From: Limnohabitans sp.
GTDB taxonomy: Bacteria; Pseudomonadota; Gammaproteobacteria; Burkholderiales; Burkholderiaceae_C
Assembly (NCBI RefSeq): GCF_046052825.1
Contig: NZ_JAVLFP010000060.1
Location: 87,355-151,354 of the forward strand
Length of the DNA stretch: 64,000 nucleotides
Reading direction: 5' to 3'
Position numbers and translations under genes: made by a program. Below, one piece after another: positions 1,459 to 64,000 of this stretch (position 1 is the first letter of the stretch; each line of letters starts with the position of its first letter). The notes beneath the pieces are model-generated. The model made no database searches. It was given only the letters and a program-made list of their open reading frames with translations, and was not told the DNA's origin.

Positions 1459-1461
1459 GTC

Positions 1462-32192: not shown

Positions 32193-32235
32193 CCGTGTGT
32201 CAATTGAATGCTTTGTCTTGAATAGGAAACATCTC

Positions 32236-33204: not shown

Positions 33205-33212
33205 GGCCCACC

Positions 33213-34190
33213 ATGACCACCACTTTGTCTCGTCTGCTGTGTTTGGTTTTGGCGCTGCTGGGCTGGGTCAGCACTTCGGTGCAAGCGCAAAACTACCCGA
33301 ACAAACCCATTCGCTTGATCGTGCCGTTTCCACCCGGGGGCGGCAACGACGTGATTGCCCGCTTGATCGCTCAAAAACTCAGCGACCGCTTTGGGCAACA
33401 GGTGGTGGTGGACAACAAAGCCGGTGCCAACGGCATTGTGGGTCTGCAAGCGCTGATGCAGTCGCCCGCCGACGGCTACACCTTGGCTGTGGCCGCTGCC
33501 GGGCCCATGGCCGTCAACCCGAGCTTGTACGACAAGCTGCCTTACGACCCCACCAAAGACTTCTCGCCCATCACCAACCTGGTGAACTACCCGTTGCTGT
33601 TGGTGGTGCACCCATCGGTGCCCGTCAAAACCACGCTCGACTTGGTCAACCTGGCCAAGGCCAAACCGCAGCAGTTGTTCTTTGCTTCACCTGGCAGCGG
33701 CAACTCGGGCCATTTGGCGGGCGAGTTGTTCAACACCATGGCCCATGTGCAAACCGTGCACGTGCCCTACAAAGGACAGGGGCCTGCCTTGGCCGACTTG
33801 CTGACCGGTCAGGTGCAGATGCTCTACAGCAGCATTCCCTCGGTGTTGCCCCAGGTCCGCTCAGGCCAGCTCACTGCGCTGGCGGTGGGCAGTGCCAAGC
33901 GCTTGCCATCACTGCCAGACATTCCGACCATCGCCGAAACCGGCGTGCCGGGTTATGAAGCGTATTCCTGGGTGGGTATCGTGGCCCCGGCCAAAACGCC
34001 CAAGGCCATCGTGACACGCTTGAACCAAGAGATCGTGGACATCTTGAAACAAAAAGACGTGGCCGAAAAACTCAACCAGCAAGGTGCCTTGCCAGTGGGC
34101 GACACGCCTGAGCAATTTGCGGCTTACATCAAGACCGAAATAGACAAATGGGGTGCGGTGGTGCGCGCTGCCAACATCAAAGCCGATTGA
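33213..34190 (+). CDS. Bug/TctC-family periplasmic binding protein
   Basis: Signal peptide, then YPNKPIRLIVPFPPGGGNDVIARLI. Start set at ATG 33213. Confidence 0.85.
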   Translation: MTTTLSRLLCLVLALLGWVSTSVQAQNYPNKPIRLIVPFPPGGGNDVIARLIAQKLSDRFGQQVVVDNKAGANGIVGLQALMQSPADGYTLAVAAAGPMAVNPSLYDKLPYDPTKDFSPITNLVNYPLLLVVHPSVPVKTTLDLVNLAKAKPQQLFFASPGSGNSGHLAGELFNTMAHVQTVHVPYKGQGPALADLLTGQVQMLYSSIPSVLPQVRSGQLTALAVGSAKRLPSLPDIPTIAETGVPGYEAYSWVGIVAPAKTPKAIVTRLNQEIVDILKQKDVAEKLNQQGALPVGDTPEQFAAYIKTEIDKWGAVVRAANIKAD

Positions 34191-43353: not shown

Positions 43354-44325
43354 ATGCGATCACGCCTTGTTGCTGCCTGTCTGGCATTCACATCCTGGGC
43401 CTTGCCCCACGGTGCTGCCCTGGCACAAGACTTTCCCAACAAGCCCATCCGCATTGTCGTGGGGCAGGGCGCGGGTGGGGGCATGGACACCCTGGCGCGC
43501 TTGGTGGGGCAACGGCTGTCCAACAGCTTGGGCCAGCCGGTGCTGGTGGAAAACAAGGTGGGGGCGGGTGGCATCATCGCCACCGACTTTGTGGCCAAGG
43601 CTCCGCCCGATGGCTACAGCTTGCTGATGGGGCCAATTGGCAACATGGTGTTCACCCCGGTGATGACGCCCAAGCTGCGTTACTCACCCACCAAAGACTT
43701 CACCCCCGTGTCGCTGGTGGCCACCTTTCCTTTGGTGCTGGTGGTCAGTGCCAAACAAAACATCCAGACCGTGCCCGAGTTGGTGGCCTTCATGAAAGCC
43801 AATCCCGCCAAGTCCAACTACGGGGGCTCGGGCCCGGCGTTTCAGTTCGCGTCCGAGTTGTTCCGCCTCAAAACCGGCACACCGGGCGAGTTCATCCAGT
43901 ACAAGAGTATGAGCGAGACCATCACCGGCTTGATTGCCGGCGACTTGCTCATGTCGATGGTCGACACCGGACCTGCCACACCGGCCATTGCCGCTGGGCA
44001 GTTGCGTGCCTTGGCCGTGACCTCACCCACGCGCTTGGCCGCGCTGCCCCAAGTGCCCACCATGGCCGAGCTGGGGCTGCCCGAGGTGGGCTTTCGGTTT
44101 TGGACTGGCTTGTTCGCGCCTGCGGGTACGCCCGAGCCGGTGGTGAAAAAGCTCGAAGCAGAGATCAACCGCGTCTTGAAACTCCCTGAGGTGGCCAGCC
44201 AAATGGCGACCATGCAGGTCACGCCCACCGGCAGCACCTCGGCCGAACTGGGCAAGTTGGTGGTGCAAGACCTGGCCCGTTGGGGCGCGGTCGCCGAGGT
44301 GGCGAAAATCAAAGCGCCCGAATAA
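43354..44325 (+). CDS. Bug/TctC-family periplasmic binding protein
   Basis: Signal peptide, then FPNKPIRIVVGQGAGGGMDTLARLV. Confidence 0.85.
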   Translation: MRSRLVAACLAFTSWALPHGAALAQDFPNKPIRIVVGQGAGGGMDTLARLVGQRLSNSLGQPVLVENKVGAGGIIATDFVAKAPPDGYSLLMGPIGNMVFTPVMTPKLRYSPTKDFTPVSLVATFPLVLVVSAKQNIQTVPELVAFMKANPAKSNYGGSGPAFQFASELFRLKTGTPGEFIQYKSMSETITGLIAGDLLMSMVDTGPATPAIAAGQLRALAVTSPTRLAALPQVPTMAELGLPEVGFRFWTGLFAPAGTPEPVVKKLEAEINRVLKLPEVASQMATMQVTPTGSTSAELGKLVVQDLARWGAVAEVAKIKAPE

Positions 44326-47852: not shown

Positions 47853-48833
47853 ATGACACGTCGTCACTTTTTACACACCGCACTGGCCACCGCTGCTGGT
47901 TTGAGCGCCTTGCCTGTGTGGGCGCAAAGCGCTGCATGGCCCGACAAACCCATCAAGGTGGTGCTGTCGCAGCCGCCTGGCTCGGGCCCCGACAACGTGG
48001 CCCGTTTGTTGGGCGAGCGCGTCGGCAAGACCTTGGGCCAGCCGTGGGTGATCGACAACAAACCTGGGGGCCAAAACATCATCGGTGCGCAAGCCGCTGC
48101 GCGTTCGCCCGCCGACGGCTACACCTTGTACTTCGCCACCACGGCCGCCTTGGTCACGAACAAGCACCTGTTCAAAACCATGCCCTACGACCCGCAAAAA
48201 GACTTTGTGCCGGTGGCCTTCGTGGCCAAGAGCCCGTTTGCGGTGTTGGTGAAAGCCGAGTCACCCATCGCCTCGATCCAAGACCTGATCGCACGTGCCA
48301 AGGCCACACCCGGCAAGCTGTCGCTGGCCAACGAAGGCCCTCGCACCTTTGGCGGGATCATCGCGCGCTTGATCAATTCACGGACCAAGATGGAGGCCAA
48401 TTTGGTCTCTTACGCCTCGGTGGGGGTGGCGGTGCAAGACGTGTTGGGTGGACATGCCGAAGCCGTGGTGGCCGACTTGGCCTCAACCGCCGCTTTGGTG
48501 CGCCAAGGCCGCCTGCGTTTGTTGGCCGTCACAGCGGGCAAACGCGTGGCAGGTTGGGAGCAGGTGCCTGCGTTGTCAGAGTTGCTGCCCAACTTTGAAA
48601 TGGTGGGTTGGTTCGCCTTGATGGCGCCCACGGGCACCCCTGCTGCAGCGATTCAAAAACTCAACGTCGAAGTCAACAAGTTGCTGGCCGAGCCCGAGTT
48701 TGCGCAACGCATGCTCACCATGGGGCCGATTGCAGACCCCTTGGGCGGGCCCGAGAAGACCGAAGCCTTCTTGAACCGCGAGCACGAGCGCTGGGCCGAA
48801 GTGGCCAAAGAAATTGGCCTCTTGCCGGAGTAA
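47853..48833 (+). CDS. Bug/TctC-family periplasmic binding protein (Tat-type signal)
   Basis: N-terminus MTRRHFLHTALATAAGLSALPVWA matches the (S/T)RRxFL pattern, followed by WPDKPIKVVLSQPPGSGPDNVARLL. Confidence 0.85.
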   Translation: MTRRHFLHTALATAAGLSALPVWAQSAAWPDKPIKVVLSQPPGSGPDNVARLLGERVGKTLGQPWVIDNKPGGQNIIGAQAAARSPADGYTLYFATTAALVTNKHLFKTMPYDPQKDFVPVAFVAKSPFAVLVKAESPIASIQDLIARAKATPGKLSLANEGPRTFGGIIARLINSRTKMEANLVSYASVGVAVQDVLGGHAEAVVADLASTAALVRQGRLRLLAVTAGKRVAGWEQVPALSELLPNFEMVGWFALMAPTGTPAAAIQKLNVEVNKLLAEPEFAQRMLTMGPIADPLGGPEKTEAFLNREHERWAEVAKEIGLLPE

Positions 48834-48937
48834 TCCCGAGTCATCCCGGGTCACTCCACACACCCAAGCGGGTTTACTTTTTCTTGGCCATGCCTTCGGC
48901 CGAGACACAGCCCCAATGTAATTCAGACCGAAGGTGT

Positions 48938-49933
48938 TCACTCGGCCTGCACCCCGGCCAGCCGAATGGCCTTGCGGGTTTGCTCAATGTCGCGTGCCAA
49001 AAACTCACGAAACGCCTCGCCCGTGCTGCTGTGGGGCACCGCACCGTGCACGGCAAAACCCTCGCGAATTTCTTTGGTTTGCAAGGCCAGGGTCAATTGA
49101 CGGCGTAGCCCGTCGAGCACCTCTGGCGGCAATCCTTTGGGGCCCATCCAACCAATCCAACTGGTGAACTCAAAGCCAGGCAAGGTCTCGGCCAGCGAGG
49201 GCACAGGCCCCAAGGGTTGCGTGCCTTTGGGCATGCTGTGACCCAAAATTTTCAAACGCCCACCCTTGACCAAGGCCATGGCCACCGGGGCGGGCGTGAG
49301 GGTCCAGTCGGTCTCGCCACTGACCACCGACCCCACCGATTGGCTGCCCCCCTTGTAAGGCACATGCAGGGCTTCAAACCCACCGGCTGCGCTCAAGGCC
49401 ACACCCGCCAAATGGCTCACCGAGCCCGGTCCGGCAGAGGCCATGTTGAACTTGCCGCCTTGGGCTTTGCCGTAGGCCACAAACTCCGACAACTTGTTCA
49501 CTGGCAAGGTGGTGCGACACACCAGCACATTGGGCAACAAGGCCACCAGGGAAATCAATTCAAAGTCTTTGAGGGGGTCGTAGCTGATGGCCTTTTGCAG
49601 CAAAGGGGCCACCGTCACCGAACTGCTCGACGCCGCGATGACGGTGTAGCCATCGGGCGGGGCCAATTTGCCAGCGTCGATGCCCACAGCGCCCGCCGCA
49701 CCGGCTTTGTTGTCGACCACCAGGGCCTGTCCAAGAAGCGGCGTGAGCTGTTGGCCCAGCAAGCGGCTGATGGTGTCGACCGAACTGCCCGGCGCATTGG
49801 GCACGATCAAGCGCACCGGGCGTGCCGGGTAGCGTGGGCTTTGCGCCCCCACAGGGCTGCTTGCCGTCAAACCGGCGCCATACAGCAAGGCGCCAGAGAT
49901 CAGTTGTCGGCGCGATGCACGAAAAGTGGACAT
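48938..49933 (-). CDS. Bug/TctC-family periplasmic binding protein
   Basis: N-terminus MSTFRASRRQLISGALLYGAGL..., then YPARPVRLIVPNAPGSSVDTISRLL. Confidence 0.85.
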   Translation of the reverse strand: MSTFRASRRQLISGALLYGAGLTASSPVGAQSPRYPARPVRLIVPNAPGSSVDTISRLLGQQLTPLLGQALVVDNKAGAAGAVGIDAGKLAPPDGYTVIAASSSSVTVAPLLQKAISYDPLKDFELISLVALLPNVLVCRTTLPVNKLSEFVAYGKAQGGKFNMASAGPGSVSHLAGVALSAAGGFEALHVPYKGGSQSVGSVVSGETDWTLTPAPVAMALVKGGRLKILGHSMPKGTQPLGPVPSLAETLPGFEFTSWIGWMGPKGLPPEVLDGLRRQLTLALQTKEIREGFAVHGAVPHSSTGEAFREFLARDIEQTRKAIRLAGVQAE

Positions 49934-49975
49934 GGATTTTCCTGTGGAAGTTGCAAAGGTGAGGGCGCACAGGCC

Positions 49976-50854
49976 TCAGCGTTGCATCAGATCGATCAAG
50001 GCTTGGGCCATCACGCCATCAGGTTGAGAAAAGGTTTCGAGCATTTCAAAATGGTTGAATGCTTCACCCCAGTAAAACCTCAAATTGGCTTTGTGATCCG
50101 ACAAACCTTGCGCAAATTCTCTGGCTTGGCGCTTGAACTCGGGCGACTCAAACTCACCACACGCCACAGACACAGGCATGGTGAAGTTGTGCAAGCGCCG
50201 CATGGGGCTGAGGTCTTGCAAGGTCTTGGGCGTGAAATTCACATAGGTGCTGCGCGACGACAGGCTCACGGGCTCCAGCTCGTACATGCCGCTGCAACAC
50301 ACCAAGGCATGCACAGGCGATTCGGTGAAACCCTTTTGCAGCCAGTTGTAAGAAGCCAAGCAGGCCGCCAAGTGCGCCCCTGAGGAATGTCCCACCAAAT
50401 AAATGCGTCGCGGGTTGGCCCCCAACTCGGCAGCTTTGCGTGCGGTGAAAGCCAAGGCGTTTTGCAGTTGCTCGGCCATGGTCAGCAAGCTGCCGCCGAC
50501 ATCAGGGGCAGCGGCAAAGTCGGGCACCACCAAGTGCGCACCCGCCAAGTTCAACCAGCCTGCGGCCATGGCGTAGTCTTTGGCCTTGCCACGGCGCCAG
50601 GCACCCCCATGCACGAAAAAAACCAAGGGTGCTCGGGCACGTTGGCTGGGATACCAATCGAGTGCCTCGACGTCGCTGGGGCCATAGGCGAAACGCTGAA
50701 CCTCGGTGCCGATCTTTTCTGCAATGGCGCGTCCTTCGACGCTGAGGGCCTCGCAGCGTGCGATCACCATGGCCATGTTGGGTGCGTGTTGAGCTTGGTC
50801 GTAGGCCCAATCCAGTTGTGCTTGCGTGAGGTCTCGCCAGACGTTGGAGTTCAT
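49976..50854 (-). CDS. alpha/beta hydrolase (arylformamidase/esterase-like, HGG class)
   Basis: 292 aa with oxyanion motif FVHGGAW and nucleophile elbow GHSSGAH. Confidence 0.75.
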   Translation of the reverse strand: MNSNVWRDLTQAQLDWAYDQAQHAPNMAMVIARCEALSVEGRAIAEKIGTEVQRFAYGPSDVEALDWYPSQRARAPLVFFVHGGAWRRGKAKDYAMAAGWLNLAGAHLVVPDFAAAPDVGGSLLTMAEQLQNALAFTARKAAELGANPRRIYLVGHSSGAHLAACLASYNWLQKGFTESPVHALVCCSGMYELEPVSLSSRSTYVNFTPKTLQDLSPMRRLHNFTMPVSVACGEFESPEFKRQAREFAQGLSDHKANLRFYWGEAFNHFEMLETFSQPDGVMAQALIDLMQR

Positions 50855-51816
50855 TCGATCACAGTGCCTGAAGTTTTGATGGTGGTTCTGCGTGAAGCGC
50901 TTTCGTTGCGGATGTGGCGACGAAATTCGTCCGGCCCGGCACCCGCAAAGTCATACGACTTGCCCTCGATTTCTTTGCTGCGGAAGTCGGCTTCACTGAT
51001 CACGGACAAGATGTCGCGGTGCATGCGGTTGACCAGGGCTGGTGCAAAGCTGGCCGGCGCAAACACGCCCACCCAGACATTGGCATCCACCTCGGGAAAA
51101 CCCAGCTCGGTCATGGTGGGAACATCGGGGTAGGCCGGGGCACGTGTTTTACCGCCGTAGGCCAAGGCCTTGATGCGTTTGCTGGCGATGTGCGGCCTGG
51201 CCGACACAATGCCCGACCAGGTCAAGGGCACCTCGCCACTGACCACCGCCGTGATCGCTTGCGGTATGCCACGGTAAGGGATGTGCACGATGAAGACGCC
51301 CGCTTTTTGCTTGAGCATCTCGGTGGCCAATTGCGGTTGACTGCCGGGCCCATAAGACGCATAAGACAAAGATCCGGGTTGTGCTTTGGCCAGGGCCAGC
51401 AATTCTTTGAGGTTGTTGGCGGGCAAGTTGGCGTTGGCCACCAGCATTTGGCTGAAGGCGACCAATTGCGTCACCGGCGCAAAGTCTTTGTCGGCGTCGT
51501 AGGGCAGCTTGGTGTAGAGATGCGGGTTGATGGTGAAGGTGGCGTCGGTGGTGAACAACAAGGTGTGGTTGTCTGTGGCGCGTGCCGCTGCTTCGGTGCC
51601 CAACAAGGTGTTGGCGCCCGGGCGGTTGTCAATGGTGATGGGTTGTTGCCATTTGTCTTGCAAGCGCTGCGCCAAAGCGCGCGCCATCACATCCACGCCG
51701 CCCCCTGCGGGGTAAGGCACGATCAACTTGACCGGGCGCGTGGGCCACTCTTGCGCCACCGCAGAGCCTGCGGCCAGACACAAGGCCGTGATCCCAATGA
51801 CAATCCAATGTTTCAT
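50851..51816 (-). CDS. Bug/TctC-family periplasmic binding protein
   Basis: Start set at ATG 51816 (MKHWIVIGITALCLAAGSAVA), then WPTRPVKLIVPYPAGGGVDVMARAL. 4-nt overlap with the downstream hydrolase gene. Confidence 0.85.
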   Translation of the reverse strand: MKHWIVIGITALCLAAGSAVAQEWPTRPVKLIVPYPAGGGVDVMARALAQRLQDKWQQPITIDNRPGANTLLGTEAAARATDNHTLLFTTDATFTINPHLYTKLPYDADKDFAPVTQLVAFSQMLVANANLPANNLKELLALAKAQPGSLSYASYGPGSQPQLATEMLKQKAGVFIVHIPYRGIPQAITAVVSGEVPLTWSGIVSARPHIASKRIKALAYGGKTRAPAYPDVPTMTELGFPEVDANVWVGVFAPASFAPALVNRMHRDILSVISEADFRSKEIEGKSYDFAGAGPDEFRRHIRNESASRRTTIKTSGTVIE

Positions 51817-54803: not shown

Positions 54804-56054
54804 ATGCCCCGCACACCGGCCTCGGCCGATCTGATCGACTCGCGCTACGCCGCTTGGCGCTTGCTCACCACGCTGCTGTTGGTCACCCTGGGCAACAGCA
54901 GCATGTATGTGGTGGCTGTGGTGTTGCCCACGGTGCAAGCCGAGTTCGGCGTCAACCGCGCCGATGCTTCCTTGCCCTATACCTTGATGATGGTGTGTCT
55001 GGGTTTGGGCGGGCTGTGGACCGGCAAGTTGGCCGACCGCTTTGGCATCACCCCGGTGTTGCAAATGGGCTCGGTGGCGGTGTGCGCAGGCTTTGTGTTG
55101 GCCGGCCTGTCGGGCAGCATTTGGACTTTTGGTTTGGCCCATGGCTTGTTGTTGGGCTTGTTGGGTGGGGCGTCCACCTTTGCCCCCCTCATGGCCGACA
55201 CCTCGTTGTGGTGGAACAAACGGCGCGGCATGGCGGTGGCCATTTGCGCCAGCGGCAACTATGTGGCGGGCACTTTTTGGCCCCCTGTGGCGCAGTGGGG
55301 CATCGAAGCCCTGGGCTGGCGCCACACCTACATCGGCATGGGTATTTTTTGTGGTGTGGGCATGGCGTTGTTGTCCTTGCGCATGCGCCAGCGTCCGCCA
55401 CTGGTGGCGCTCACCCCGAGCAGCGCCACTCCCAGTCGTGCGAGCTTGCACACCAGTGAGCGGCCGTTTGGTCTGAGCCAAGGGCAAGCCCAGCTCTTGT
55501 TGTGTGTGTCAGGTTTTGCCTGCTGCGTGGCCATGTCCATGCCCCAGGTGCACATCGTGGCCTATTGCTCCGACTTGGGCTTTGGTGCCGCACGTGGGGC
55601 TGAGATGTTGTCGCTCATGTTGGCCTGTGGCATCGTCAGCCGCTTGGTCTCGGGCTGGATTTGCGACCACATTGGCGGCATTCGCACCCTCTTGCTGGGC
55701 TCTGCTTTGCAAGGTGTGGCCTTGCTGTTGTTTTTGCCTTTTGATGGCTTGGTGCCGCTGTACCTTATCTCGGCCATGTTTGGCTTGTTTCAGGGCGGCA
55801 TCGTGCCGTCTTACGCCATCATCGTGCGCGAACACTTCCCGCCCCAGCAAGCGGGCGCCCGCGTGGGCGCTGTGATCATGGCGACCTTGGTGGGCATGGC
55901 GGCCGGTGGGTGGATGTCGGGCAAGGTGTTTGACCTCACCGGCTCCTACCAAGCCGCCTTCCTCAACGGCATCGGTTGGAATTTGTTGACCGTCTCGATC
56001 GCTTCGTGGCTGTATTGGCGGGTGGCCCGTGCCACACCGCAACCCAGCCCTTAG
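54804..56054 (+). CDS. MFS transporter (oxalate/formate antiporter-like subfamily)
   Basis: 416 aa with about 12 TM segments and motif GKLADRFGITP. It starts 16 nt after the SBP stop. Confidence 0.8.
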   Translation: MPRTPASADLIDSRYAAWRLLTTLLLVTLGNSSMYVVAVVLPTVQAEFGVNRADASLPYTLMMVCLGLGGLWTGKLADRFGITPVLQMGSVAVCAGFVLAGLSGSIWTFGLAHGLLLGLLGGASTFAPLMADTSLWWNKRRGMAVAICASGNYVAGTFWPPVAQWGIEALGWRHTYIGMGIFCGVGMALLSLRMRQRPPLVALTPSSATPSRASLHTSERPFGLSQGQAQLLLCVSGFACCVAMSMPQVHIVAYCSDLGFGAARGAEMLSLMLACGIVSRLVSGWICDHIGGIRTLLLGSALQGVALLLFLPFDGLVPLYLISAMFGLFQGGIVPSYAIIVREHFPPQQAGARVGAVIMATLVGMAAGGWMSGKVFDLTGSYQAAFLNGIGWNLLTVSIASWLYWRVARATPQPSP

Positions 56055-56083
56055 ACCTCGACGCATTCAGAAAGGCTTCAGGT

Positions 56084-57784
56084 ATGACCCACATCGCATC
56101 GACAGACGTCATCATCGTGGGTGGCGGCCCCAGTGGTCTGATGTTGGCCATTGAGCTGGGATGCCGCAACGTGCCCTGCCTCTTGATCGAGCCGCAACTG
56201 CTGCCCCCCGACCGCCCCAAAGCCAACGCCACCTCCGCACGCACCATGGAGCATTACCGCCGCCGTGGTTTTGCCGACCAGGTGCGCAAGGTCGGCATGG
56301 CCGCAGACTATCCCCAAGACGTGATGTATTGCACCCGATTGGCGGGCAAAGAACTGGCGCGTTTTCGCATCCCCAGCCGCACCCAGGCGGCTCAGCAAAG
56401 CGCCTTTGGCGACTACGGCGAAGCCGCTTGGCCCACCCCAGAGTTGCCGCACCGGGGCCAGCAGATGTACATCGAGCCGATCTTGCGTCAACAGATCGCG
56501 CGCTACCCCAGTGTGACCACGCGTTACGGTTGGCAAGTCGATCAAGTCGCCGATGGCGCCGAGCACGCGCGTGTAGTCGCCACCGATGTGGCCACCCAAC
56601 GCACGCATGAGCTGCAAGCGCGGTACGTGGTGGGGTGCGATGGACCCCGCAGCATCGTGCGCCACACCATGGGCACCAGCTACGAAGGGGCCAGCCAAGA
56701 GCAGCGGGATTATTTTGGCGGGCAGATGCTGTCGATCCACTTTCGCGCGGCAGGTTTGTACCCCGCCTTGGCGCACGGCCCGTTGGCCCAGCCGGCTTGG
56801 CAGAGCTGGGTCATGAACCCCCAACTGCGCGGCATCTTGGTGGCCATCAACGGCGTGGATGAGTTTGGCATGGGCATTCAACTCAAACCCGGTCAAGGCA
56901 TTGACGATGTCAATGTCGATGCCACCCTGCGCACGCTCACCGGCCTGGACACCGTGCCGTTTGACTACGAGGTGCTGCACAAAAGCAGTTGGACAGCGGG
57001 CTTCATGTTGGTGGCCGAGCAGTTCCAAACCGGGCGCTTGTTCATTGCCGGAGACGCCGCCCATTTGTTCACCCCCACCGGTGGCATGGGCTACAACACC
57101 AGCATCGACGACGCCGTGAACTTGGGTTGGAAGCTCGCCGCCGTGGTGCAGGGCTGGGCCCCTGAGTCGCTGCTGCACACCTACTTTGAAGAGCGCCACC
57201 CCATCGCCAAGCGCAACACACAGTTTGCGCGTCTCATGGCCGAAAGCATTGGGCGCATGCCCATCCCGGCATCGCTGGAGCAAGACACCACGGAGGGTGA
57301 ACAAGCCCGAGTCGCCTTGGCCCATGCCGTGCACGCCCACGCCCATGCGGAGTTCAACATCCCAGGCTTGCAGCTGGGGCTGCGCTACCAAAGCCGCATC
57401 GTGGCGCGTGAATCGGGCGAGGCCCCGCCCGATGCCCCCAATGTCTATGTGCCCAGTGGGTTTGCGGGATGCCGCGCACCGTTTGTCAAGCTGGCAGACG
57501 GCAGGTGGCTGCCCGACTTGTTTGGCAGGGACTTCACCGTGTTGGCCTTGGGCCCGCAGTCCGACGAACACACCTGGTTGGAGGCCGCCAGTGCCCTCAC
57601 ATTGCCCTTGACGGTGGTGCATCAACCCGACGCCGCAGCGCGTGCGCTGTACGGGGCCGATTGGGTGCTGGTTCGCCCCGACCATCATGTGGCTTGGCGG
57701 GGCAACAGCGCACAGCAGGCTTCAGCCGTGCTGGCGCAAGCCGCAGGTCTCAGGGTGGATGAAGGGATGCAGATCAGCCGGTGA
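56084..57784 (+). CDS. FAD-dependent aromatic hydroxylase (PheA/TfdB phenol monooxygenase-like, with C-terminal thioredoxin-like domain)
   Basis: Start set at ATG 56084. Carries VIIVGGGPSG, VGCDGPRS and GDAAHLFTPTGGMGYNTSIDDAVNLGWKL, with a ~170-aa C-terminal extension. Confidence 0.85.
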   Translation: MTHIASTDVIIVGGGPSGLMLAIELGCRNVPCLLIEPQLLPPDRPKANATSARTMEHYRRRGFADQVRKVGMAADYPQDVMYCTRLAGKELARFRIPSRTQAAQQSAFGDYGEAAWPTPELPHRGQQMYIEPILRQQIARYPSVTTRYGWQVDQVADGAEHARVVATDVATQRTHELQARYVVGCDGPRSIVRHTMGTSYEGASQEQRDYFGGQMLSIHFRAAGLYPALAHGPLAQPAWQSWVMNPQLRGILVAINGVDEFGMGIQLKPGQGIDDVNVDATLRTLTGLDTVPFDYEVLHKSSWTAGFMLVAEQFQTGRLFIAGDAAHLFTPTGGMGYNTSIDDAVNLGWKLAAVVQGWAPESLLHTYFEERHPIAKRNTQFARLMAESIGRMPIPASLEQDTTEGEQARVALAHAVHAHAHAEFNIPGLQLGLRYQSRIVARESGEAPPDAPNVYVPSGFAGCRAPFVKLADGRWLPDLFGRDFTVLALGPQSDEHTWLEAASALTLPLTVVHQPDAAARALYGADWVLVRPDHHVAWRGNSAQQASAVLAQAAGLRVDEGMQISR

Positions 57785-58238
57785 AGCGTTGCAGCTGAGC
57801 CAGCATGGCGGCTGGAATGGGCACCCGCTGGCGCACCTCTCGGCTGATGCAAATGGGTGAAAAGCGCCCCGTGAAAATGCGTCGTCCATCGGCTTGCTTG
57901 GCCTCGACGTGGATGTCGTAGCTGTGCGCACGGATGTTGGAGACCGTGCAGTGCATGTCAAACTCATCCTCGGGCCACAGCGCACCATGGAACGTCAAGT
58001 CCATGCCTTTGCAAGGCGTGTCGACGGCCAGCGTTTTGATCCATTCAAAGTAGCGGCCATCGCCCAACTCGGCAAAAAAATAGCTCGAAGCGATCAGCAA
58101 ATACTCGGTGAACTTACCGGTGTACACCACGCCTGCCGGGTCGCAGTCGGCCCAGCGCACGCGCTTGCGCACCACCAAGGGGTGGCGCGACACCACACGT
58201 TCGTAGGTTGACACATGGGGGGCGCTGTCAGCGTGCAT
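57774..58238 (-). CDS. 4-hydroxybenzoyl-CoA-thioesterase-type (hotdog fold) acyl/aryl-CoA thioesterase
   Basis: 154 aa with N-terminal VRWADCDPAGVVYTGKF, the 4HBT-type catalytic Asp context. Confidence 0.75.
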   Translation of the reverse strand: MHADSAPHVSTYERVVSRHPLVVRKRVRWADCDPAGVVYTGKFTEYLLIASSYFFAELGDGRYFEWIKTLAVDTPCKGMDLTFHGALWPEDEFDMHCTVSNIRAHSYDIHVEAKQADGRRIFTGRFSPICISREVRQRVPIPAAMLAQLQRFTG

Positions 58239-59445
58239 GGGCGCTTTCCAGGGGTTCGTGGGCAGCCACAGGCTTTTGTGTCAAACCCTCGCGCTGAAAT
58301 TGCGCAAACAACTCGGGGTATTGCTGCTGCAAGCGTTCTTCGCTCAGGCGACCGGTGCGGGTCATGAACGCGTGAATGAACCCATAGGGGGTGTAGCGTC
58401 GCATCCAGTCCCCAAACTGCTCGTACCACAGGTAGGACTTGCGTGAGGCGTTCAAGAGTTTGTCTTTGGCCGGGCCGCGCGTTTGGGCAAAGTTGTGCAG
58501 GCGTGCCAGTGGGCTGAGCTCTGGGGCTCCGGTTGCCACCGGCGCGGTCAAGGCATCGGCCAGCGCAATCGCGTCTTCCATGGCGATGCGGGTGCCTGAA
58601 CCAATCGAGAAGTGGGCCGTGGTGTGCGCGTCGCCCATCAACACATGCTTGCCCACCGTCCAGTGCGCGTTTTGCGTCACGGGGAACTGCCGCCAGTTGG
58701 AATGGTTGGAAATCAGTGGCTCCCCATCCAGCTCAGGCGCAAACACCTGTTCAAACACCTGTTGGCGTTGTTCGTTGCTCATGGCGTGCAGCCCTAAGCT
58801 GTGCCAGGTGGCGTCGTCGCACTCCGCCACAAAGGTGCTGGCCGAGCTGCTGTAGGGGTAGTAATGCGCCACAAACGAGCCGCCTTGCCACTCACGAAAC
58901 ACCAAGGCCGATTTGGTGAACACCCGCGCCGTGCCGTACCACGCAAAGTGGTTGGTCAGGAATGACTGGGTGGTGCCAAACTCTGTTTCGTAGGCGGCAC
59001 GCACCACCGAGTTCACGCCATCGGCGCCCACCACCACATCGGCATCGGCCAAACCATGCTGACTGAGTTCGTCGGGGTGTTCGATGCGCACACCAAAACG
59101 CACATCCACACCCACCTCTTGGGCGGTGCGTTGCAGCACATGCAGCAAATCGATGCGGGCAATGGCACCCCCTTTGGCGGGGTGTTGAATGTCAATCGGA
59201 TGGTGTTGCACTTCGATGGTTTGAACCCCATTGAAATTCATCTTCGCAACCAACTGCTCAAACACCTGGGGGTCTGCTGCTTGCAAACGGTTGAGCCCTG
59301 AGTCGGCCAGCACCACCCCAAACCCAAAGGTCGAATCGGCGTTGTTTTGTTCAATCACGCTCACAGGCCAGTCGGGTTGGCGGCGTTTGAGCAAGAGGGC
59401 GAGGTACAGCCCCGAGGGGCCACCGCCCACGATGGCGACTTTCAT
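58228..59445 (-). CDS. stand-alone group-A FAD-dependent monooxygenase (candidate aryl-CoA hydroxylase)
   Basis: 405 aa with MKVAIVGGGPSG and GDAHTTAHFSIGSGTRIAMEDAIALADAL. The N-terminal pattern ...TFGFGVVL... resembles what I recall of the monooxygenase half of aminobenzoyl-CoA/salicylyl-CoA hydroxylases. That resemblance is unverified. Confidence 0.75.
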   Translation of the reverse strand: MKVAIVGGGPSGLYLALLLKRRQPDWPVSVIEQNNADSTFGFGVVLADSGLNRLQAADPQVFEQLVAKMNFNGVQTIEVQHHPIDIQHPAKGGAIARIDLLHVLQRTAQEVGVDVRFGVRIEHPDELSQHGLADADVVVGADGVNSVVRAAYETEFGTTQSFLTNHFAWYGTARVFTKSALVFREWQGGSFVAHYYPYSSSASTFVAECDDATWHSLGLHAMSNEQRQQVFEQVFAPELDGEPLISNHSNWRQFPVTQNAHWTVGKHVLMGDAHTTAHFSIGSGTRIAMEDAIALADALTAPVATGAPELSPLARLHNFAQTRGPAKDKLLNASRKSYLWYEQFGDWMRRYTPYGFIHAFMTRTGRLSEERLQQQYPELFAQFQREGLTQKPVAAHEPLESAHAR

Positions 59446-59699
59446 GCGGCGCTTTCGATGATGGTCAACACATCGTTGTCAAAGTGGGTGATCTGTCCGA
59501 CCAAGCCACCCGTCAACGCCCCGTGCCACACCGCAGGCTTGAAGCCCAAGGTTTTACGCTTCAAGCTGATTTGCTGCGGCGCGGAGATGCGCCAATACCC
59601 CAGCCGTGGGCCATCGACCTGGTAGTCGGGCACCTCACGCGCATGCGCCACCAAGGGTAAAAACTCTTCCACATTGAGGACAAAGATCGTGGGCATCAA
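59442..59699 (-). CDS. 85-aa protein, possible MmoB/DmpM-family (monooxygenase effector) fold
   Basis: Translationally coupled to both neighbours by 4-nt overlaps. The motif YWRISAPQQISLKRKTL...GQITHFDNDVLTI parallels DmpM MIRIEAEKRLEIRRETV...GNVDEDDDRFVL and T4moD [17 protein letters not shown]...GQIQADEDQIRF, both recalled from memory. Confidence 0.45.
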   Translation of the reverse strand: MMPTIFVLNVEEFLPLVAHAREVPDYQVDGPRLGYWRISAPQQISLKRKTLGFKPAVWHGALTGGLVGQITHFDNDVLTIIESAA

Positions 59700-60316
59700 T
59701 GGGACTCCTGGGCCTGCTCAAACGCCTGGGCCAAGGCCGCGCCTTTGGTCAGCCAGACTTGGTCGATCTTTTGAAACGGTTGCTGGCCTTGCTCCAGGGC
59801 CATGCCTGCTTCGAGGGTGCGGGCGGCGTCTTGAATGTCAATGGCTTCGAACGGACGGACTTGCCAGGTGATCTCCAGCGAGTAGCCATTGGGGTCGTTG
59901 AAGTAAATCGACTCAATCACCTCGTGGCGAATTTGGTACTTGACCTCAATGCCAGCGGCTTCGATCTTGGCGCGGCAGTCCAACAAGGCTTCGCGGGTGT
60001 CCACGCGCCATGCCGTGTGCGAGGCGCGGTAGCGGTAGTCGTCGTGCACCGCCACAAAGTCGGGTGGGGTGGTGCCGATGTAGTAAAAAAACGCGATCGT
60101 GCTGTGGTTGCCGCTGTCAAAAAAGAAATGCAAAAAGTCGGCATGGTCTTCCGGACCCCAGCCACGCGCTGAAATGGCATGCACCAGCGGCAGCCCCAAC
60201 AAGTCACGGTAAAAGTGCACGGTTTCTGACAACTTCCAGGTCGGGCGTGCCGTGTGGTGAACGCCCGCAATGGGAATGGGCTGACGGGCTGTGGTGGCTG
60301 AGGTGAGGGTGGTCAT
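59696..60316 (-). CDS. VOC-superfamily (glyoxalase/dioxygenase fold) protein with C-terminal helical extension
   Basis: 206 aa with a VOC module GVHHTARPTW...FYRDLLGLP...HFFFD...HTAWRV...SIYFNDPNGYSLEI, followed by about 55 extra residues. Confidence 0.7.
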   Translation of the reverse strand: MTTLTSATTARQPIPIAGVHHTARPTWKLSETVHFYRDLLGLPLVHAISARGWGPEDHADFLHFFFDSGNHSTIAFFYYIGTTPPDFVAVHDDYRYRASHTAWRVDTREALLDCRAKIEAAGIEVKYQIRHEVIESIYFNDPNGYSLEITWQVRPFEAIDIQDAARTLEAGMALEQGQQPFQKIDQVWLTKGAALAQAFEQAQESH

Positions 60317-60331: not shown

Positions 60332-62017
60332 TCACTGCGGGGTTTGTTCGGCTTTGAGCATGTTGGCAATCAAGGTTCGCAGGGCGGGCTTGTTGAGTTT
60401 GGACGCGTTGGTGAGGGGGAACTCTGTCAGCACCTCGATGCGTTCAGGCCACTTGAATTTGGCCATGCCCGCCGCTTCCAAAAAGCGCCCCAGCTCTGCG
60501 GTGGTGGGCACAACCGCACCATCACGCAGGGTGACGAAGGCACAGATGCGCTCGCCGTACACCTGGTCGGGCATGCCCACGATGGCCGTGGCCGAGATGG
60601 CAGGGTGGCGGTTGACTTGCAACTCCACTTCTTCGCAGTTGACCTTTTCGCCCGCGCGGTCCACCACGTCTTTGGTGCGGCCACGGAACTGGTAGTAGCG
60701 CTTGCCGCCAATGTCTCGAAACAGCATCAAGTCGCCCGAGCGGTAAAAGCCCTGGCGGGTGAAGGCCTGTGCATCGCGCTCCGGGGCATCGTAATAACCG
60801 TGGATGGTGTAGGGCCCACCAAAGGCGCATTCGCCTTCGACACCGGGTTCCACAATTTCCTCCTCGCTGCCAATCTTGAACAGCTTGACTTGGTCAAATG
60901 GCGACACCGGCGCGCCCACCATGGTGTCGCGCACCTCTTGCGGGTCGGTGTCTTGCGTGAGCATGATCACGCCCTCGGTCATGCCAAAGATGTGATAAAC
61001 CGGCGCACCCAACAAGTCGCGCAAGGCCGGGGCGTTGTTGGCGCTGATGACCCCGCGCAGACTGCCCAGAGGCAATGCGCCCGATTGAACGGCGGGTTTG
61101 AGCTTCTCCACCAAAGGCCCGGCCATCACGGTCCAGGTGGGTTCGCAGCGTTTGAAAATATCGCCCAAAGCCTCGGGCGCCAAACTGGTGGCAATGGCCA
61201 CGTTGCCCCCGGTCAACAAAAACGGACCAAAGCAGCACCCCATGTTGAGGTTGTGCATCATCGGCATGGGCATGAACAACACGTCGTCGCTGCGGTAGCC
61301 GTTCCAAGCCGCGACCGAGCGCATGTTGTAGATGTACTCGTTGTGAAAACGCGGAATGATCTTGGGCACCCCGGTGGTGCCGCCAGACAGCTGAAACACC
61401 GCCACCTGAAACGGGTCGCGCGGCACTTGGGCCAGCAGCGCGCTGGCGCTTTCTTGGCTGATCGACGCGATCAGGGTTTGCAGATGGTGGGCGGACCCGC
61501 GCGGCGTGCCACGGGCCTGGACGATGGCCGTCAAGGTGGGCACCACGGCCTGCATGCGCTCGGCAAATGCCACATCGTCGAACTTTGGGTCATCGCCTTG
61601 CACAAACATCAGCCGTGCTTTGGCATGGTTGCCCAAGTAGCCAATTTCAAGTTCGCGGTGGGCGGCGAGGGTGCAGATGGGAATCAAACCTGCCTTGAGG
61701 CAGGCGATGAAGCCCACCACCAGCTCGTTGCAGTTGCCGATCTGAAAAATCACCCGGTCCAAGGGCGCCAACCCCATCTGGATGAACGCACCCGCCAAGC
61801 GGTCGGTCATCTCTTGCAACTGGCCGTAACTCAAACTGCCCTCGCTGCCGCTCAGTGCAGTGCGTTTGGCATGTTGGGTGAATGACGCACTGAAGGCCTG
61901 GTCCATGGTTTCGTGGGTCAGGGCGCCACCGTCGACATAGCGGCGCAAGTCGGCTTCTGGGGCATAGACCACCCCCGGCATGGGGTGGCGTACTTGGTAT
62001 TGGCGTGAGGTCAGCAT
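60332..62017 (-). CDS. aryl-acid adenylating enzyme / aryl-CoA ligase (EntE/DhbE-like ANL family)
   Basis: 561 aa with AMP-binding motifs LSGGTTGVPK, GMTEG, YRSGD and GRTKD. The N-terminal region is colinear with 2,3-dihydroxybenzoate-AMP ligases as I recall them. Confidence 0.85.
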   Translation of the reverse strand: MLTSRQYQVRHPMPGVVYAPEADLRRYVDGGALTHETMDQAFSASFTQHAKRTALSGSEGSLSYGQLQEMTDRLAGAFIQMGLAPLDRVIFQIGNCNELVVGFIACLKAGLIPICTLAAHRELEIGYLGNHAKARLMFVQGDDPKFDDVAFAERMQAVVPTLTAIVQARGTPRGSAHHLQTLIASISQESASALLAQVPRDPFQVAVFQLSGGTTGVPKIIPRFHNEYIYNMRSVAAWNGYRSDDVLFMPMPMMHNLNMGCCFGPFLLTGGNVAIATSLAPEALGDIFKRCEPTWTVMAGPLVEKLKPAVQSGALPLGSLRGVISANNAPALRDLLGAPVYHIFGMTEGVIMLTQDTDPQEVRDTMVGAPVSPFDQVKLFKIGSEEEIVEPGVEGECAFGGPYTIHGYYDAPERDAQAFTRQGFYRSGDLMLFRDIGGKRYYQFRGRTKDVVDRAGEKVNCEEVELQVNRHPAISATAIVGMPDQVYGERICAFVTLRDGAVVPTTAELGRFLEAAGMAKFKWPERIEVLTEFPLTNASKLNKPALRTLIANMLKAEQTPQ

Positions 62018-62052: not shown

Positions 62053-63030
62053 TTATTCAGGCTTGAACCCTAAGGTGCGGATGACACCGCCAAACAATTC
62101 TTTTTCGCTTTTGACAAAGCGCTGGGCATCGGCCACCGAGCCTGGCGTGGCGTAGGTGCCGAAGTCACGGAACTTGGCCAACACATCGGGCTGCTGCATG
62201 GCCAGGTTGATGTCGTTGTTGAGGCGCTGCAAGATCGCCGCAGACGTGCCCTTGGGGGCCTGAAAACTGAACCAGCCGCTGATGTTCAAACCTGGAATGG
62301 TTTTGTTGGCCAAGGGAATGCTCTCCAAGCCAGGCAATTCGGTTTCGGCCGCCACCGCGAGGGCACGCAAGCGCCCTGACTTGACCAATTGAATCAGCGG
62401 GCCCGTGCCGTCCACATACATGGCGATGTCGCCGTTGACAACCGACTGAATGCCTTGCGCGGTGTTGGCAAAAGACACTTGTTGAAACTGCACATTCATT
62501 TTGATGCCCGCCACCTCGGCGGCCAAATGCGGGATGGAGGTTCGGGTGGGGTTGCCAATCGCAATTTGGTCAGGCTTGGCTTTGGCCATGGCAATGGCAT
62601 CGGCCAAGTTTTTGGCGGGGTTGCTTGCGTTGGTGACAAACAGCATGGGTGTTTTGCCGGCGATGGCAAAGGTCTCGAAGTCGCGTTCTATGTCGTAGGT
62701 GGCTTCTTTGTAGGTGACCGGCGTGACCACCACCACAGCGGCTTGGTTCAAGCCAATGGTGTAACCGTCGGCAGGCGCTGCTTTGAGCAAGTTCATGGCC
62801 ACAATGCCGCCTGCGCCGGGCTTGTTGTCGACCACGATGGTTTGACCCAGGCTCGCGGTGAGCTTGTCGCCAATGATGCGGGCCGCCAAGTCAGGCGCGC
62901 TGCCCGCAGGTGCGGGCACGATCAAGCGGATCGACTTTTGCGGCCAAGCGCCGGTTTGTGCCCAACTGCAAAGCGCTGCAGCACCAAGGCACGTGGCCAG
63001 CAAGGTGCGAGAGAGATGTTTCAAAAGCAT
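62053..63030 (-). CDS. Bug/TctC-family periplasmic binding protein
   Basis: Signal peptide MLLKHLSRTLLATCLGAAALCSWA, then WPQKSIRLIVPAPAGSAPDLAARII. Confidence 0.85.
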   Translation of the reverse strand: MLLKHLSRTLLATCLGAAALCSWAQTGAWPQKSIRLIVPAPAGSAPDLAARIIGDKLTASLGQTIVVDNKPGAGGIVAMNLLKAAPADGYTIGLNQAAVVVVTPVTYKEATYDIERDFETFAIAGKTPMLFVTNASNPAKNLADAIAMAKAKPDQIAIGNPTRTSIPHLAAEVAGIKMNVQFQQVSFANTAQGIQSVVNGDIAMYVDGTGPLIQLVKSGRLRALAVAAETELPGLESIPLANKTIPGLNISGWFSFQAPKGTSAAILQRLNNDINLAMQQPDVLAKFRDFGTYATPGSVADAQRFVKSEKELFGGVIRTLGFKPE

Positions 63031-63069: not shown

Positions 63070-64000
63070 TCAACGTGGCTCGTGCAGCCATTGCTGAACC
63101 AAACGGCCGGCCAAGACTTGTCCGGTCTCTTCGCCTTCGGCCAAGGCCTGTCCGTGGTGGTTGCCGCGCACGCGTTCGCGCCGCTTGTGGGAGGTGCCGA
63201 TGGACGCGTAAATGGCCGCCATGTCCGACGGAAATGCGGCTTGGTCCCCGGTGTACTCAATCACCAGCGAGGGCACTTGAATCTCCGGGCCGCATTTCTC
63301 GAAACTCGCGTTCGAGCTGATGCCCGACCAGGTGGACAACCACGACTCGGCGGTGACCATGCGGGCAAAACCCACGCTGCCCCAGTTGGAGGCAAAGGGG
63401 TCACGGCCCCACAGGCCACCCACCACGCGGTCAGAGGGGTCGAGCGACAAGTCCCAGCAGCGCAAGTCGGCATCGGTGCGCCAAATGGCGGTGATGGGCG
63501 TGTGCGCGGCCCGTCGCTGGGTGTGCACCGAGGTGTCACCTTCTTTCATTTGTTTGCGCGCCTGCGCGCGCGTGGCCAAGATGGCGCGCGCATGGGCGTC
63601 TAAGCGCTCGATGCGGGCGTGCTGCGCGGCACGGTAGCGGCTCACAAACTCAGGGCTGTAGTGGGACGAGGCGGGCGGCGTGACAAACCCGTTGTGGGCG
63701 TCGAACGGGTCAAGCGCTGCATCCACCGACAAGGGGTCGTGCTCGTCGCTGACCGACGGGTCGATGCCGTTCATCAGCAACTTGCCTTGACCGGGGTGGG
63801 GCGAGACAAAAATCAAGTCATCCGGCGCTGGCATGTGGGCACCCGCCAGATCGACCGGGCGCCCGCCGGGCGTGCGTGCAATGCGTTGCTCGGGCGCACG
63901 CAAGGCCTGCTGGGTGTAGAAGGCATACAAGCCCGCACCGCCCGAGTTGCCCAACAACACGATGCGCTCAAACCCCAGGCTGCGCAAATGCGCCATGCTG
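63070..64000 (-). CDS. alpha/beta hydrolase (partial; N-terminus beyond window end)
   Basis: Nucleophile elbow LLGNSGGAG lies only ~15 aa from the first in-window residue, so the true start must be upstream of position 64000. Confidence 0.6.
   Translation of the reverse strand, partial: SMAHLRSLGFERIVLLGNSGGAGLYAFYTQQALRAPEQRIARTPGGRPVDLAGAHMPAPDDLIFVSPHPGQGKLLMNGIDPSVSDEHDPLSVDAALDPFDAHNGFVTPPASSHYSPEFVSRYRAAQHARIERLDAHARAILATRAQARKQMKEGDTSVHTQRRAAHTPITAIWRTDADLRCWDLSLDPSDRVVGGLWGRDPFASNWGSVGFARMVTAESWLSTWSGISSNASFEKCGPEIQVPSLVIEYTGDQAAFPSDMAAIYASIGTSHKRRERVRGNHHGQALAEGEETGQVLAGRLVQQWLHEPR

Follow-up and report, generated by a model that had tools for sequence, protein, structure and literature searches.

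Which enzyme is served by a protein that resembles a diiron-monooxygenase effector when no diiron monooxygenase is encoded beside it? This question is raised by a small open reading frame (ORF) in a Limnohabitans sp. contig, of which a stretch of 64,000 nucleotides (the 64-kb window) was analyzed. The effectors of soluble methane, toluene and phenol monooxygenases are the textbook example of protein-controlled O2 activation, and, to our knowledge, they are treated as specific to diiron enzymes. The original prediction, made from the window's letters, read the small ORF as an MmoB/DmpM-like effector that stands alone between the genes of a VOC protein and a flavoprotein monooxygenase.

The small ORF is a real gene

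The small ORF spans positions 59442–59699 of the minus strand, with a TTG start and the stop codon counted, and this location was reproduced when the sequence was re-read. The TGA stop codon (59444–59442) shares the letters ATGA with the ATG of the flavoprotein gene (59445–59443), and the 4-nt overlap described for this junction is therefore present. At the other junction, a 4-nt overlap with the VOC stop codon exists for the TTG start only. The codon that follows the TTG is an ATG (59696–59694), which shares a single nucleotide with the VOC stop codon (TGATG). A Shine-Dalgarno-like AGGAG (59705–59709, minus strand), located within the VOC gene at its 3′ end, precedes this ATG by 8 nt. For this reason, an 84-aa product that begins MPTIFVL (59445–59696, minus strand, stop codon at 59442–59444) is likelier than the 85-aa product first proposed, for which the TTG at 59699 serves as an alternative start. 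Similar GGAG motifs precede the start of the small gene at the split junctions of other genomes.

Conserved homologues of the small protein occur in syntenic clusters. The domain is present in 80 species-level genomes that share a conserved gene cluster, and about 160 homologues of 81–93 aa were found, every one of which is annotated as hypothetical. In a comparison with the nearest relative, 20 of the 25 nucleotide differences fall in third codon positions, and the codon changes comprise 20 synonymous and 3 non-synonymous substitutions. This conservation, together with the codon-position evidence, rules out the possibility that the ORF is not a real gene: it is one, and it is under purifying selection.

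The predicted structure matches diiron-monooxygenase effectors

To compare the small protein with known folds, an AlphaFold2 model (pLDDT 94.9) was searched against the PDB with Foldseek. The top 31 matches are all MmoB, T4moD or PHM, the phenol-hydroxylase effector, with TM-scores of 0.70–0.75, a probability of 1.00 and E values from 3e-5. The next fold in the list has an E value of 0.3 and a TM-score of at most 0.43. A generic alpha/beta sandwich was rejected as the reason for the match, as ACT, PII, BMC and ferredoxin-like folds reach just E ≥ 0.3 and TM ≤ 0.43. The small protein is thus modeled with the MmoB/DmpM effector fold, in agreement with the original prediction.

At the level of sequence, the relationship is remote. 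The small protein has no match to Pfam PF02406 at E ≤ 1, and the best-scoring relative reaches 16.1 bits (E 0.013), so that the gathering threshold of 25 bits is attained neither by the small protein nor by any relative scored. Weak, sub-threshold matches to PF02406 were obtained for 10 of 51 family members, and the three that were examined in detail are all in register with the profile. Searches of Pfam, NCBIfam and PDB sequences with the small protein itself returned nothing useful, and BLASTP against T4moD gave no alignment; the only PDB sequences that did match, picornavirus VP1 and HIV protease (E ~1), were dismissed as chance hits. In contrast to the formal Pfam assignment, which did not hold, a profile–profile comparison points to homology. 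When 158 diverse family members were aligned to a verified MmoB/DmpM/T4moD alignment with hhalign, a probability of 92.7% was obtained (E 4e-7, columns 10–50), compared with 91.2% for a less diverse query profile and 0.2% for a reversed-profile control, with a confident core that spans ~40 columns only. Remote homology of the family with the MmoB/DmpM/T4moD effectors is, by this measure, detectable.

The DmpM and T4moD fragments from which the resemblance was first recognized are exact substrings of PDB entries 1hqi and 3dhh. The consensus pattern drawn from them fits only approximately: where it asks for [RK], T4moD has a T, and in place of [DEN]-D the small protein has D-N. The most conserved stretch of the family, LG[FL]KPAVW[HY]G..TGG..G, is of a surface-loop type and shows little or no variation among 51 sequences. 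By manual sequence register, it corresponds to the MmoB/T4moD segment before the penultimate strand, which we take to include hydroxylase-contact residues.

No diiron hydroxylase accompanies the small protein

A hydroxylase gene had been reported as missing from the window, and this absence extends to the related loci. Across the 64-kb window and 87 related loci (1.66 Mb), no canonical effector was detected at E ≤ 10 with a profile of verified effectors, and no diiron hydroxylase was detected at E ≤ 10 by phmmer with verified T4moA. As a positive control, the T4moA search recovered phenol hydroxylase and MmoX from the PDB. The Phenol_Hydrox families are likewise absent from the Pfam-annotated contexts of the related loci.

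The small domain is paired with or fused to a VOC protein

In the window, the small gene lies right after a gene for a VOC (PF00903) protein of 206 aa with a C-terminal helical extension (59699–60316, minus strand), the proposed catalytic partner. A VOC domain directly precedes the small domain in all 80 species-level loci. In 41 of these, as in the window, the small domain has a gene of its own, which is translationally coupled and lies on the same strand, with junctions that overlap or span 1–10 nt; in the other 39, the VOC and small domains form an in-frame fusion. The fused proteins consist of PF00903 and the small domain: a profile search matched positions 1–83 of the small-domain profile at the C-terminus of PF00903 proteins of 261–298 aa, and the same HMM matches 125 fused and 195 small proteins over more than 65 positions. 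Fusions are frequent in Achromobacter, Bordetella, Variovorax, Azospirillum, Paraburkholderia, Cupriavidus and Pseudomonas and appear in at least two places of the domain tree. Gene-calling artefacts were ruled out as the source of the fusions by the many finished or isolate genomes, by the single ~290-aa VOC annotations of NCBI and by the open frame in the 39 loci. Left out of the fusion evidence were P0228 and P0206, which look like frameshifted metagenome calls, P0233, a spurious match to a repeat protein, and P0140, a probable chimera.

The adjacency of the small domain to VOC is therefore obligatory and its fusion to VOC is recurrent. These comparisons identify the small protein as the split-off counterpart of the C-terminal domain that a widespread two-domain VOC protein of ~290 aa carries. 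The effector fold and the lack of a diiron monooxygenase thus survive from the original prediction, and both PF02406 membership and the status of an orphan, stand-alone effector are lost. An AlphaFold2 model of a fused member has a pTM of 0.86 and a pLDDT of 87, and the two domains are therefore predicted to pack in a defined way. No relevant publication turned up in literature searches on a VOC/glyoxalase enzyme paired with an MmoB-like protein, on the gene cluster or on PDB 9u42.

The VOC partner is a putative para-diol dioxygenase in an aryl-CoA cluster

The best PDB sequence match of the VOC protein (E 1e-14) is 9u42, a VOC-type protein of 182 aa from Acinetobacter that is titled homogentisate 1,2-dioxygenase and whose substrate is a free para-diol acid rather than a CoA thioester. 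The His/His/Glu metal ligands of the paired beta-alpha-beta-beta-beta modules are conserved: residues H20/H21, H63, H100 and E148 of the VOC protein are at least 97% conserved in 81 sequences, and the same residues are found in 9u42. Because the metal ligands are kept and the closest solved relative is a homogentisate 1,2-dioxygenase, we infer a para-diol ring substrate: the VOC protein is a putative dioxygenase with 2-His-1-carboxylate-type ligands that would cleave or otherwise transform a ring of the gentisate/homogentisate type. Para-diol cleavage as such does not require the small domain, since 9u42 lacks it. The VOC chemistry may also be of a non-oxygenase kind and act on a CoA thioester. 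By TM-score, methylmalonyl-CoA epimerases match the VOC half at least as well as dioxygenases do, and MhqO-type proteins are also among the structural matches. The NCBIfam dioxygenase models are matched only far below their cut-offs, and the conserved basic residues R24, K28, R37 and R154 are missing from 9u42.

The genes around the pair, all on the minus strand, are consistent with CoA-thioester chemistry. The flavoprotein is a group-A monooxygenase of 405 aa (58231–59445), followed by a 4HBT_2 hot-dog thioesterase of 154 aa (57777–58238). On the VOC side lie an aryl-acid adenylating enzyme/CoA ligase of 561 aa (60335–62017), for which the closest model is a 2,3-dihydroxybenzoate-AMP ligase matched below its cut-off; a TctC/Bug-family periplasmic solute-binding protein (62056–63030), a cluster member in most split-form loci; and the 3′ part of a conserved ~420-aa protein (63070–64000), the gene of which extends past the window end. 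This last protein carries a GNSGG serine-hydrolase-like motif; sequence searches of Pfam, NCBIfam and the PDB found no match for it. The flavoprotein matches the bifunctional salicylyl-CoA 5-hydroxylase/oxidoreductase (PRK08255, NCBIfam NF006101) with 312 bits (E 7e-93) over profile positions 1–390 of 768. Only the N-terminal half is present and the OYE-type reductase half is missing; the score falls below the cut-off of 1078 bits for a full-length member. The conserved cluster that accompanies the VOC/small pair comprises the aryl-CoA ligase, this half-size salicylyl-CoA-5-hydroxylase-like flavoprotein, the thioesterase, the ~420-aa protein and usually an Amdase-family protein; an Amdase gene was found neither in the window nor in its closest relatives (L008–L010). 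Very distant fused members retain TetR, flavoprotein, ligase and Amdase genes, and one of them also retains the protein without a known family, which has ~415 aa there.

Proposed role of the small domain

The small protein is most likely an accessory subunit in complex with the adjacent VOC metalloenzyme, a reading that we regard as reasonably probable. The model that we infer includes a physical complex between the two separately encoded proteins, dioxygenase chemistry, a pathway and a gating role. In this model, the ligase would turn an ortho-substituted aromatic acid into its CoA thioester, the half-size flavoprotein would hydroxylate the aryl-CoA, and the thioesterase would free the hydroxylated product. 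The VOC enzyme would then cleave the para-diol ring of this gentisate- or homogentisate-type product, and the cleaved compound would be processed further by the ~420-aa serine-hydrolase-like protein and, in most genomes, by the Amdase-family isomerase/decarboxylase. The small, cofactor-less protein would bind the VOC metalloenzyme, which in roughly half of the related genomes carries it as a covalently linked C-terminal domain. If MmoB and T4moD, which act on diiron hydroxylases, are taken as a guide, the small protein probably docks over the VOC active-site funnel, where it could shape or gate the entry of substrate and O2 or could shield the metal. A more tentative proposal, which we consider possible and somewhat doubtful, is that the MmoB/DmpM effector principle, by which a small protein without a cofactor docks on an oxygenase and governs its reactivity and the entry of substrate and O2, extends beyond diiron hydroxylases to a mononuclear-metal VOC dioxygenase, whether the effector is a subunit of its own or a fused domain.

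Fusion and adjacency demonstrate association, not function, and the small domain could be a passive part of the VOC structure that serves oligomerisation, folding or solubility, with the MmoB-like fold reused as a scaffold and no effector-like regulation. The second domain of two-domain extradiol dioxygenases is such a non-catalytic structural partner, and 9u42 functions without a small domain. We nevertheless consider a purely structural role unlikely, as the conservation of the surface-loop-type LG[FL]KPAVW[HY]G..TGG..G stretch would suggest a specific functional surface.

The original prediction had named either a flavin or a VOC enzyme as the partner, and the second of these is favored because in-frame fusion recurs with VOC; the flavoprotein shows no specific tie. 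An effector or coupling protein of the flavoprotein, which would tune NAD(P)H/O2 coupling in aryl-CoA hydroxylation, might be expected from the 4-nt overlap with the flavoprotein start, from the position of the flavoprotein gene directly after the small domain in 79 of 80 loci, and from the established ability of canonical effectors to raise oxygenase coupling. However, the small domain is fused to VOC only, with no flavoprotein fusion found. In a separate gene-order subfamily, the fused VOC gene adjoins those of the ~420-aa protein and the ligase, and the ligase and thioesterase genes lie between VOC and flavoprotein. Moreover, one distant locus encodes a flavoprotein–ligase fusion, and there the MmoB-like domain is still found on VOC. 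As group-A flavoprotein monooxygenases are also not known to require effectors, this assignment is improbable. Least probable of all is that the small domain binds the CoA or nucleotide part of a thioester while VOC acts on an aryl-CoA (e.g., gentisyl-CoA) before the thioesterase step: the CoA-centered cluster, a conserved glycine-rich loop (TGGLxG) that could hold phosphate, the epimerase matches and the four basic VOC residues are compatible with it, but nucleotide binding is not known for any MmoB/DmpM-fold protein and the best VOC sequence relative acts on a free acid.

With an accessory subunit of the VOC enzyme as the preferred reading, a second class of partner, hitherto undescribed, appears to exist for the effector fold. 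The small proteins would form a widespread, unannotated sister family of effectors, obligatorily paired with or fused to a VOC metalloenzyme in at least 80 species-level genomes (Burkholderiales and some Alphaproteobacteria). Hundreds of "VOC family protein" annotations conceal the unrecognized C-terminal domain, and a conserved, uncharacterized aromatic-acid catabolic cluster is brought to notice. The natural split and fused versions allow a direct biochemical comparison. If the effector principle does operate on a VOC dioxygenase, the diiron-monooxygenase effectors would gain in this family their first known outgroup, and with it a route to asking about effector origin and minimal effector function.

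Comparison with known systems

The small protein shares its predicted fold and order of secondary structure with MmoB, T4moD/TouD and DmpM/PHM (PF02406), as well as a Y-x-R-I-x-A-x3-h-x-h-x-R-x-T core. Like these effectors, it is small, has no cysteines or obvious cofactor site and is encoded in an oxygenase-rich catabolic operon. It differs in its length (84 aa, compared with 89–141 aa for the solved effectors), in the family's own invariant KPAVW[HY]G..TGG motif, and in its partner: the known effectors act with diiron hydroxylases, whereas the small protein stands next to, or is fused to, a mononuclear-metal VOC protein with no diiron hydroxylase beside it. We know of no canonical effector that is a domain fused to its hydroxylase.

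Among VOC-type para-diol dioxygenases, 9u42 (cf. the hydroquinone-type MhqO, 3oaj) shares the His/His/His/Glu positions with the VOC partner. It is, however, a single domain without an MmoB-like domain or partner, whereas the VOC protein described here adds a helical extension of ~55 aa and the MmoB-like domain, which is either fused or encoded by its own gene. XylT-type ferredoxins are small accessory proteins that are encoded beside VOC extradiol dioxygenases and protect or reactivate the enzyme. They offer a precedent for an accessory protein of a VOC dioxygenase, as is proposed for the small protein, but XylT, as a [2Fe-2S] ferredoxin, acts by re-reducing the iron, whereas the small protein has another fold, lacks cysteine ligands and often forms one polypeptide with its enzyme.

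Gentisate is formed from salicylate or 4-hydroxybenzoate by CoA-dependent routes, represented by Sdg (Streptomyces sp. WA46), Ceh (Rhizobium sp. X9) and Phg (Brevibacillus). Of these genes, sdgC is named in PMC13215587. The three routes and the cluster described here have three enzymes in common: an aryl-CoA ligase, a flavoprotein that hydroxylates the aryl-CoA and a hot-dog thioesterase. The present cluster differs in that its flavoprotein is without the OYE reductase half and in that the place of a cupin gentisate dioxygenase is taken by the VOC/MmoB-like pair, the ~420-aa protein and, usually, an Amdase-family protein.

A conserved small-protein gene with a predicted effector fold

The reading frame at 59442-59699 on the minus strand counts 85 codons from a TTG. 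Its TGA stop (59444-59442) shares ATGA with the ATG of the next gene, in agreement with the original prediction of 4-nt overlaps on both sides. The upstream overlap with the stop of the preceding gene is likewise 4 nt for the TTG start and only 1 nt (TGATG) for the ATG in the following codon (59696-59694). Because an AGGAG (59705-59709, minus strand) precedes this ATG by 8 nt, the small protein is taken as an 84-residue product beginning MPTIFVL; since some homologues begin with MMP and others with MP, both starts are possible. Among 5.8 billion proteins searched, 159 homologues (81-93 aa, 57-95% identity) were found, all unnamed or annotated as "hypothetical", and the gene is present in 80 species-representative genomes. 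Relative to the nearest relative (locus L008), 20 of the 25 nucleotide differences fall at third codon positions; 20 codon changes are synonymous and three non-synonymous, and this bias is also kept against more distant relatives. The open reading frame is a real gene, with conserved homologues in syntenic clusters.

The small protein matches nothing in Pfam or NCBIfam, including the MmoB_DmpM profile; PDB searches with its sequence or the family profile returned nothing meaningful, and BLASTP gave no alignment with T4moD. An AlphaFold2 model built from a 51-sequence alignment (mean pLDDT 94.9, pTM 0.83) has a beta-alpha-beta-beta-beta-alpha-alpha-beta-beta topology. In a Foldseek search of the PDB with this model, chains of MmoB, T4moD and the phenol-hydroxylase protein PHM take the top 31 places (query TM 0.60-0.75, E from 3e-5, prob 1.00); beyond the old DmpM NMR model, only generic alpha/beta folds follow (E >= 0.3, TM <= 0.43). 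For profile-profile comparison, the family was set against T4moD homologues aligned with DmpM, PHM and two MmoB sequences, each confirmed in the PDB; the probability was 91.2%. With a broader query profile (158 sequences, Neff 5.0) it was 92.7% (E 4e-7), residues 10-50 of the small protein aligning with residues 22-64 of T4moD, and a reversed-template control gave 0.2%. Finally, a PF02406 scan of all 51 family members found weak matches in 10, of which the three examined in detail are all in register (e.g., protein 30-51 on profile 30-51); the best-scoring of these relatives reaches 16.1 bits, the cut-off being 25.

Based on these three independent lines (structure, profile-profile comparison and sub-threshold PF02406 matches), the small protein is predicted to have the effector fold originally proposed for it, and very probably shares a distant ancestor with the MmoB/DmpM effectors. 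The DmpM and T4moD fragments quoted for that proposal are exact substrings of PDB entries 1hqi and 3dhh; the consensus pattern drawn from them fits only approximately. Judged by sequence, the small protein falls below the threshold of PF02406 and outside that family as defined, and with its relatives forms a family of its own. The family has the invariant motif LG[FL]KPAVW[HY]G..TGG..G and is modelled in neither Pfam (2025 copy) nor NCBIfam (2026).

The VOC protein as probable partner

The reported absence of a diiron hydroxylase from the window stands and extends to 87 related loci. In six-frame translations of the window and these loci (1.66 Mb), neither an HMM of verified effectors nor phmmer with verified T4moA gave a match at E <= 10; as a positive control, the T4moA query finds the PDB entries of phenol hydroxylase (1e-40) and MmoX (1e-17 to 1e-12). 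Nor do Phenol_Hydrox or MmoB_DmpM genes appear among the Pfam annotations of ten contigs. The small protein is without the association with a diiron enzyme that defines the PF02406 family.

The small protein is also not the free-standing orphan that had been suggested. A VOC domain homologous to the 206-aa PF00903 protein of the window (59699-60316, minus strand) lies directly upstream of the small-protein domain in 80 of 80 loci, as a separate gene in 41 and fused in frame in 39. At split junctions the two genes are translationally coupled (by TGATG, by ATGA, or across 1-10-nt gaps after GGAG), and the window VOC and small proteins are collinear with the fused proteins of ~290 aa. An exhaustive profile search of 1.84 billion representatives returned 131 relatives of the small protein, several of which are 260-300 aa long and match at their C-terminus, with an N-terminal PF00903 (glyoxalase/VOC) domain followed by a helical linker and the small-protein domain. 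The top 120 matches to one fused member, P0170, are 283-316 aa long at 94-100% coverage and annotated as "VOC family protein". They include proteins from Achromobacter, Bordetella petrii, Variovorax, Azospirillum, Paraburkholderia, Pseudomonas and Pigmentiphaga, and on these sequences the fused form is common. In a neighbour-joining tree of the domain, which at ~80 residues is indicative only, fused forms occupy at least two positions, and another fused subfamily shows a different gene order, so that fusion or fission has probably occurred repeatedly. The AlphaFold2 model of a second fused member, P0346 (pLDDT 87.2, pTM 0.86), implies that the two domains would pack in a defined way. The small-protein domain thus always occurs with a VOC domain, is often covalently joined to it, and is never joined to the flavoprotein encoded downstream. 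The partner left open by the original prediction is the VOC protein, which the split-form small protein probably binds.

One Variovorax robiniae genome carries the whole split-form cluster twice, on different contigs (loci L021 and L029), so the module has been paralogously duplicated in some Variovorax.

Cluster genes and inferred pathway

The closest solved sequence relative of the window VOC protein is 9u42 (E 1e-14), a para-diol-cleaving VOC enzyme of 182 aa with a single domain, titled [quoted passage not shown]. Residues H20/H21, H63, H100 and E148 are at least 97% conserved among 81 family sequences, and the aligned residues of 9u42 are identical. By structure, the VOC protein also resembles extradiol dioxygenases, MhqO-type proteins and methylmalonyl-CoA epimerases. 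Homogentisate 1,2-dioxygenase activity classically belongs to a cupin enzyme, and the VOC fold of 9u42, released recently (2025), is unusual for it; an incomplete literature search found no paper on this entry.

The surrounding genes are kept in split and fused lineages and largely kept in very distant members. They encode a TetR regulator, a DHB-AMP-ligase-like aryl-CoA ligase, a 4HBT_2 thioesterase, a TctC or MFS transporter, the flavoprotein, a ~420-aa protein and, usually, an Amdase-family protein (PF17645). The flavoprotein (380-405 aa across loci; window copy 58231-59445, minus strand) corresponds to the monooxygenase half of salicylyl-CoA 5-hydroxylase/oxidoreductase (E 7e-93 in the window, 4e-117 in B. 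petrii). In contrast to that 768-aa bifunctional enzyme it is "half-size", covering only profile positions 1-390 and lacking the OYE reductase domain. At locus L003, a few kb away, a separate Oxidored_FMN gene lies beside another AMP-ligase. In a distant locus (the JGI metagenome contig of homologue P0225, genes 1330-4533), the flavoprotein is fused to the ligase in a 1067-aa protein with FAD_binding_3 and AMP-binding domains. This second Rosetta-stone link inside the pathway fits hydroxylation at the CoA-thioester level. The ~420-aa protein, present in 76 of 80 loci, carries a GNSGG serine-hydrolase-like motif and has no match in Pfam, NCBIfam or PDB sequences; its 3' part lies at 63070-64000 (minus strand), and a full-length homologue is found at L001:3406-4677. 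It may be a hydrolase for the ring-cleavage product.

No Amdase homologue is found in the window (tblastn E < 1e-8). A 602-aa PRK06126-type FAD aromatic-ring hydroxylase (55976-57784, plus strand), convergent to the cluster, takes the place that the Amdase-family gene has in most relatives. Only in the closest MAGs, the uncultured Burkholderiales L008 and L009, to which the window is ~96% identical at this locus, is it found in that position; a 61%-identical copy lies farther off in L043. At least seven TctC/Bug-family solute-binding paralogues occur in the 64 kb (32227-34181, 43366-44292, 47853-51801, 62056-63030), and many Burkholderiales likewise carry numerous such paralogues.

In the Sdg, Ceh and Phg routes, a ligase, an aryl-CoA hydroxylase and a thioesterase lead to gentisate, and the Amdase family includes maleate isomerase. 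By analogy with these routes, we infer that an ortho-substituted aromatic acid would be converted to its CoA thioester, hydroxylated to a para-diol and released. The ring would then be cleaved by the VOC enzyme, and the product processed by the serine-hydrolase-like protein and the Amdase-family enzyme. Alternatively to cleavage of the released para-diol, the VOC enzyme may act on the CoA thioester.

Possible role and comparison with known effectors

On balance, the small protein is probably an accessory subunit of the VOC enzyme. MmoB and T4moD sit over the active-site regions of the hydroxylases that they serve, altering access and reactivity; by analogy, the small protein might cover the VOC active-site funnel and govern access of substrate and O2, a gating role that we regard as less likely than not. 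It could alternatively shield a labile Fe(II) site from the autoxidising para-diol. In a manual register running from a shared "LG" to a shared "TI", the most conserved motif, KPAVWHG..TGG, falls on the MmoB segment ..FLVDVSSTIGRA.., which we take to contain hydroxylase-contact residues; this is a lead from sequence and not a test. The small protein may instead be a purely structural domain of the VOC enzyme, a reading consistent with 9u42, which works without it. A CoA-binding module is a speculative alternative. An effector of the flavoprotein is disfavoured, as both the fusion pattern and the alternative gene order argue against it.

An incomplete literature search found no paper on this cluster and none tying an MmoB-like protein to a VOC enzyme, which is absence of evidence only. 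The family pairs the effector fold with a partner class that is new for it. Compared with the PF02406 effectors, the small protein shares the predicted fold and probable ancestry, but lies below their sequence threshold and outside their defining genomic association; at most, it works "like" an effector.
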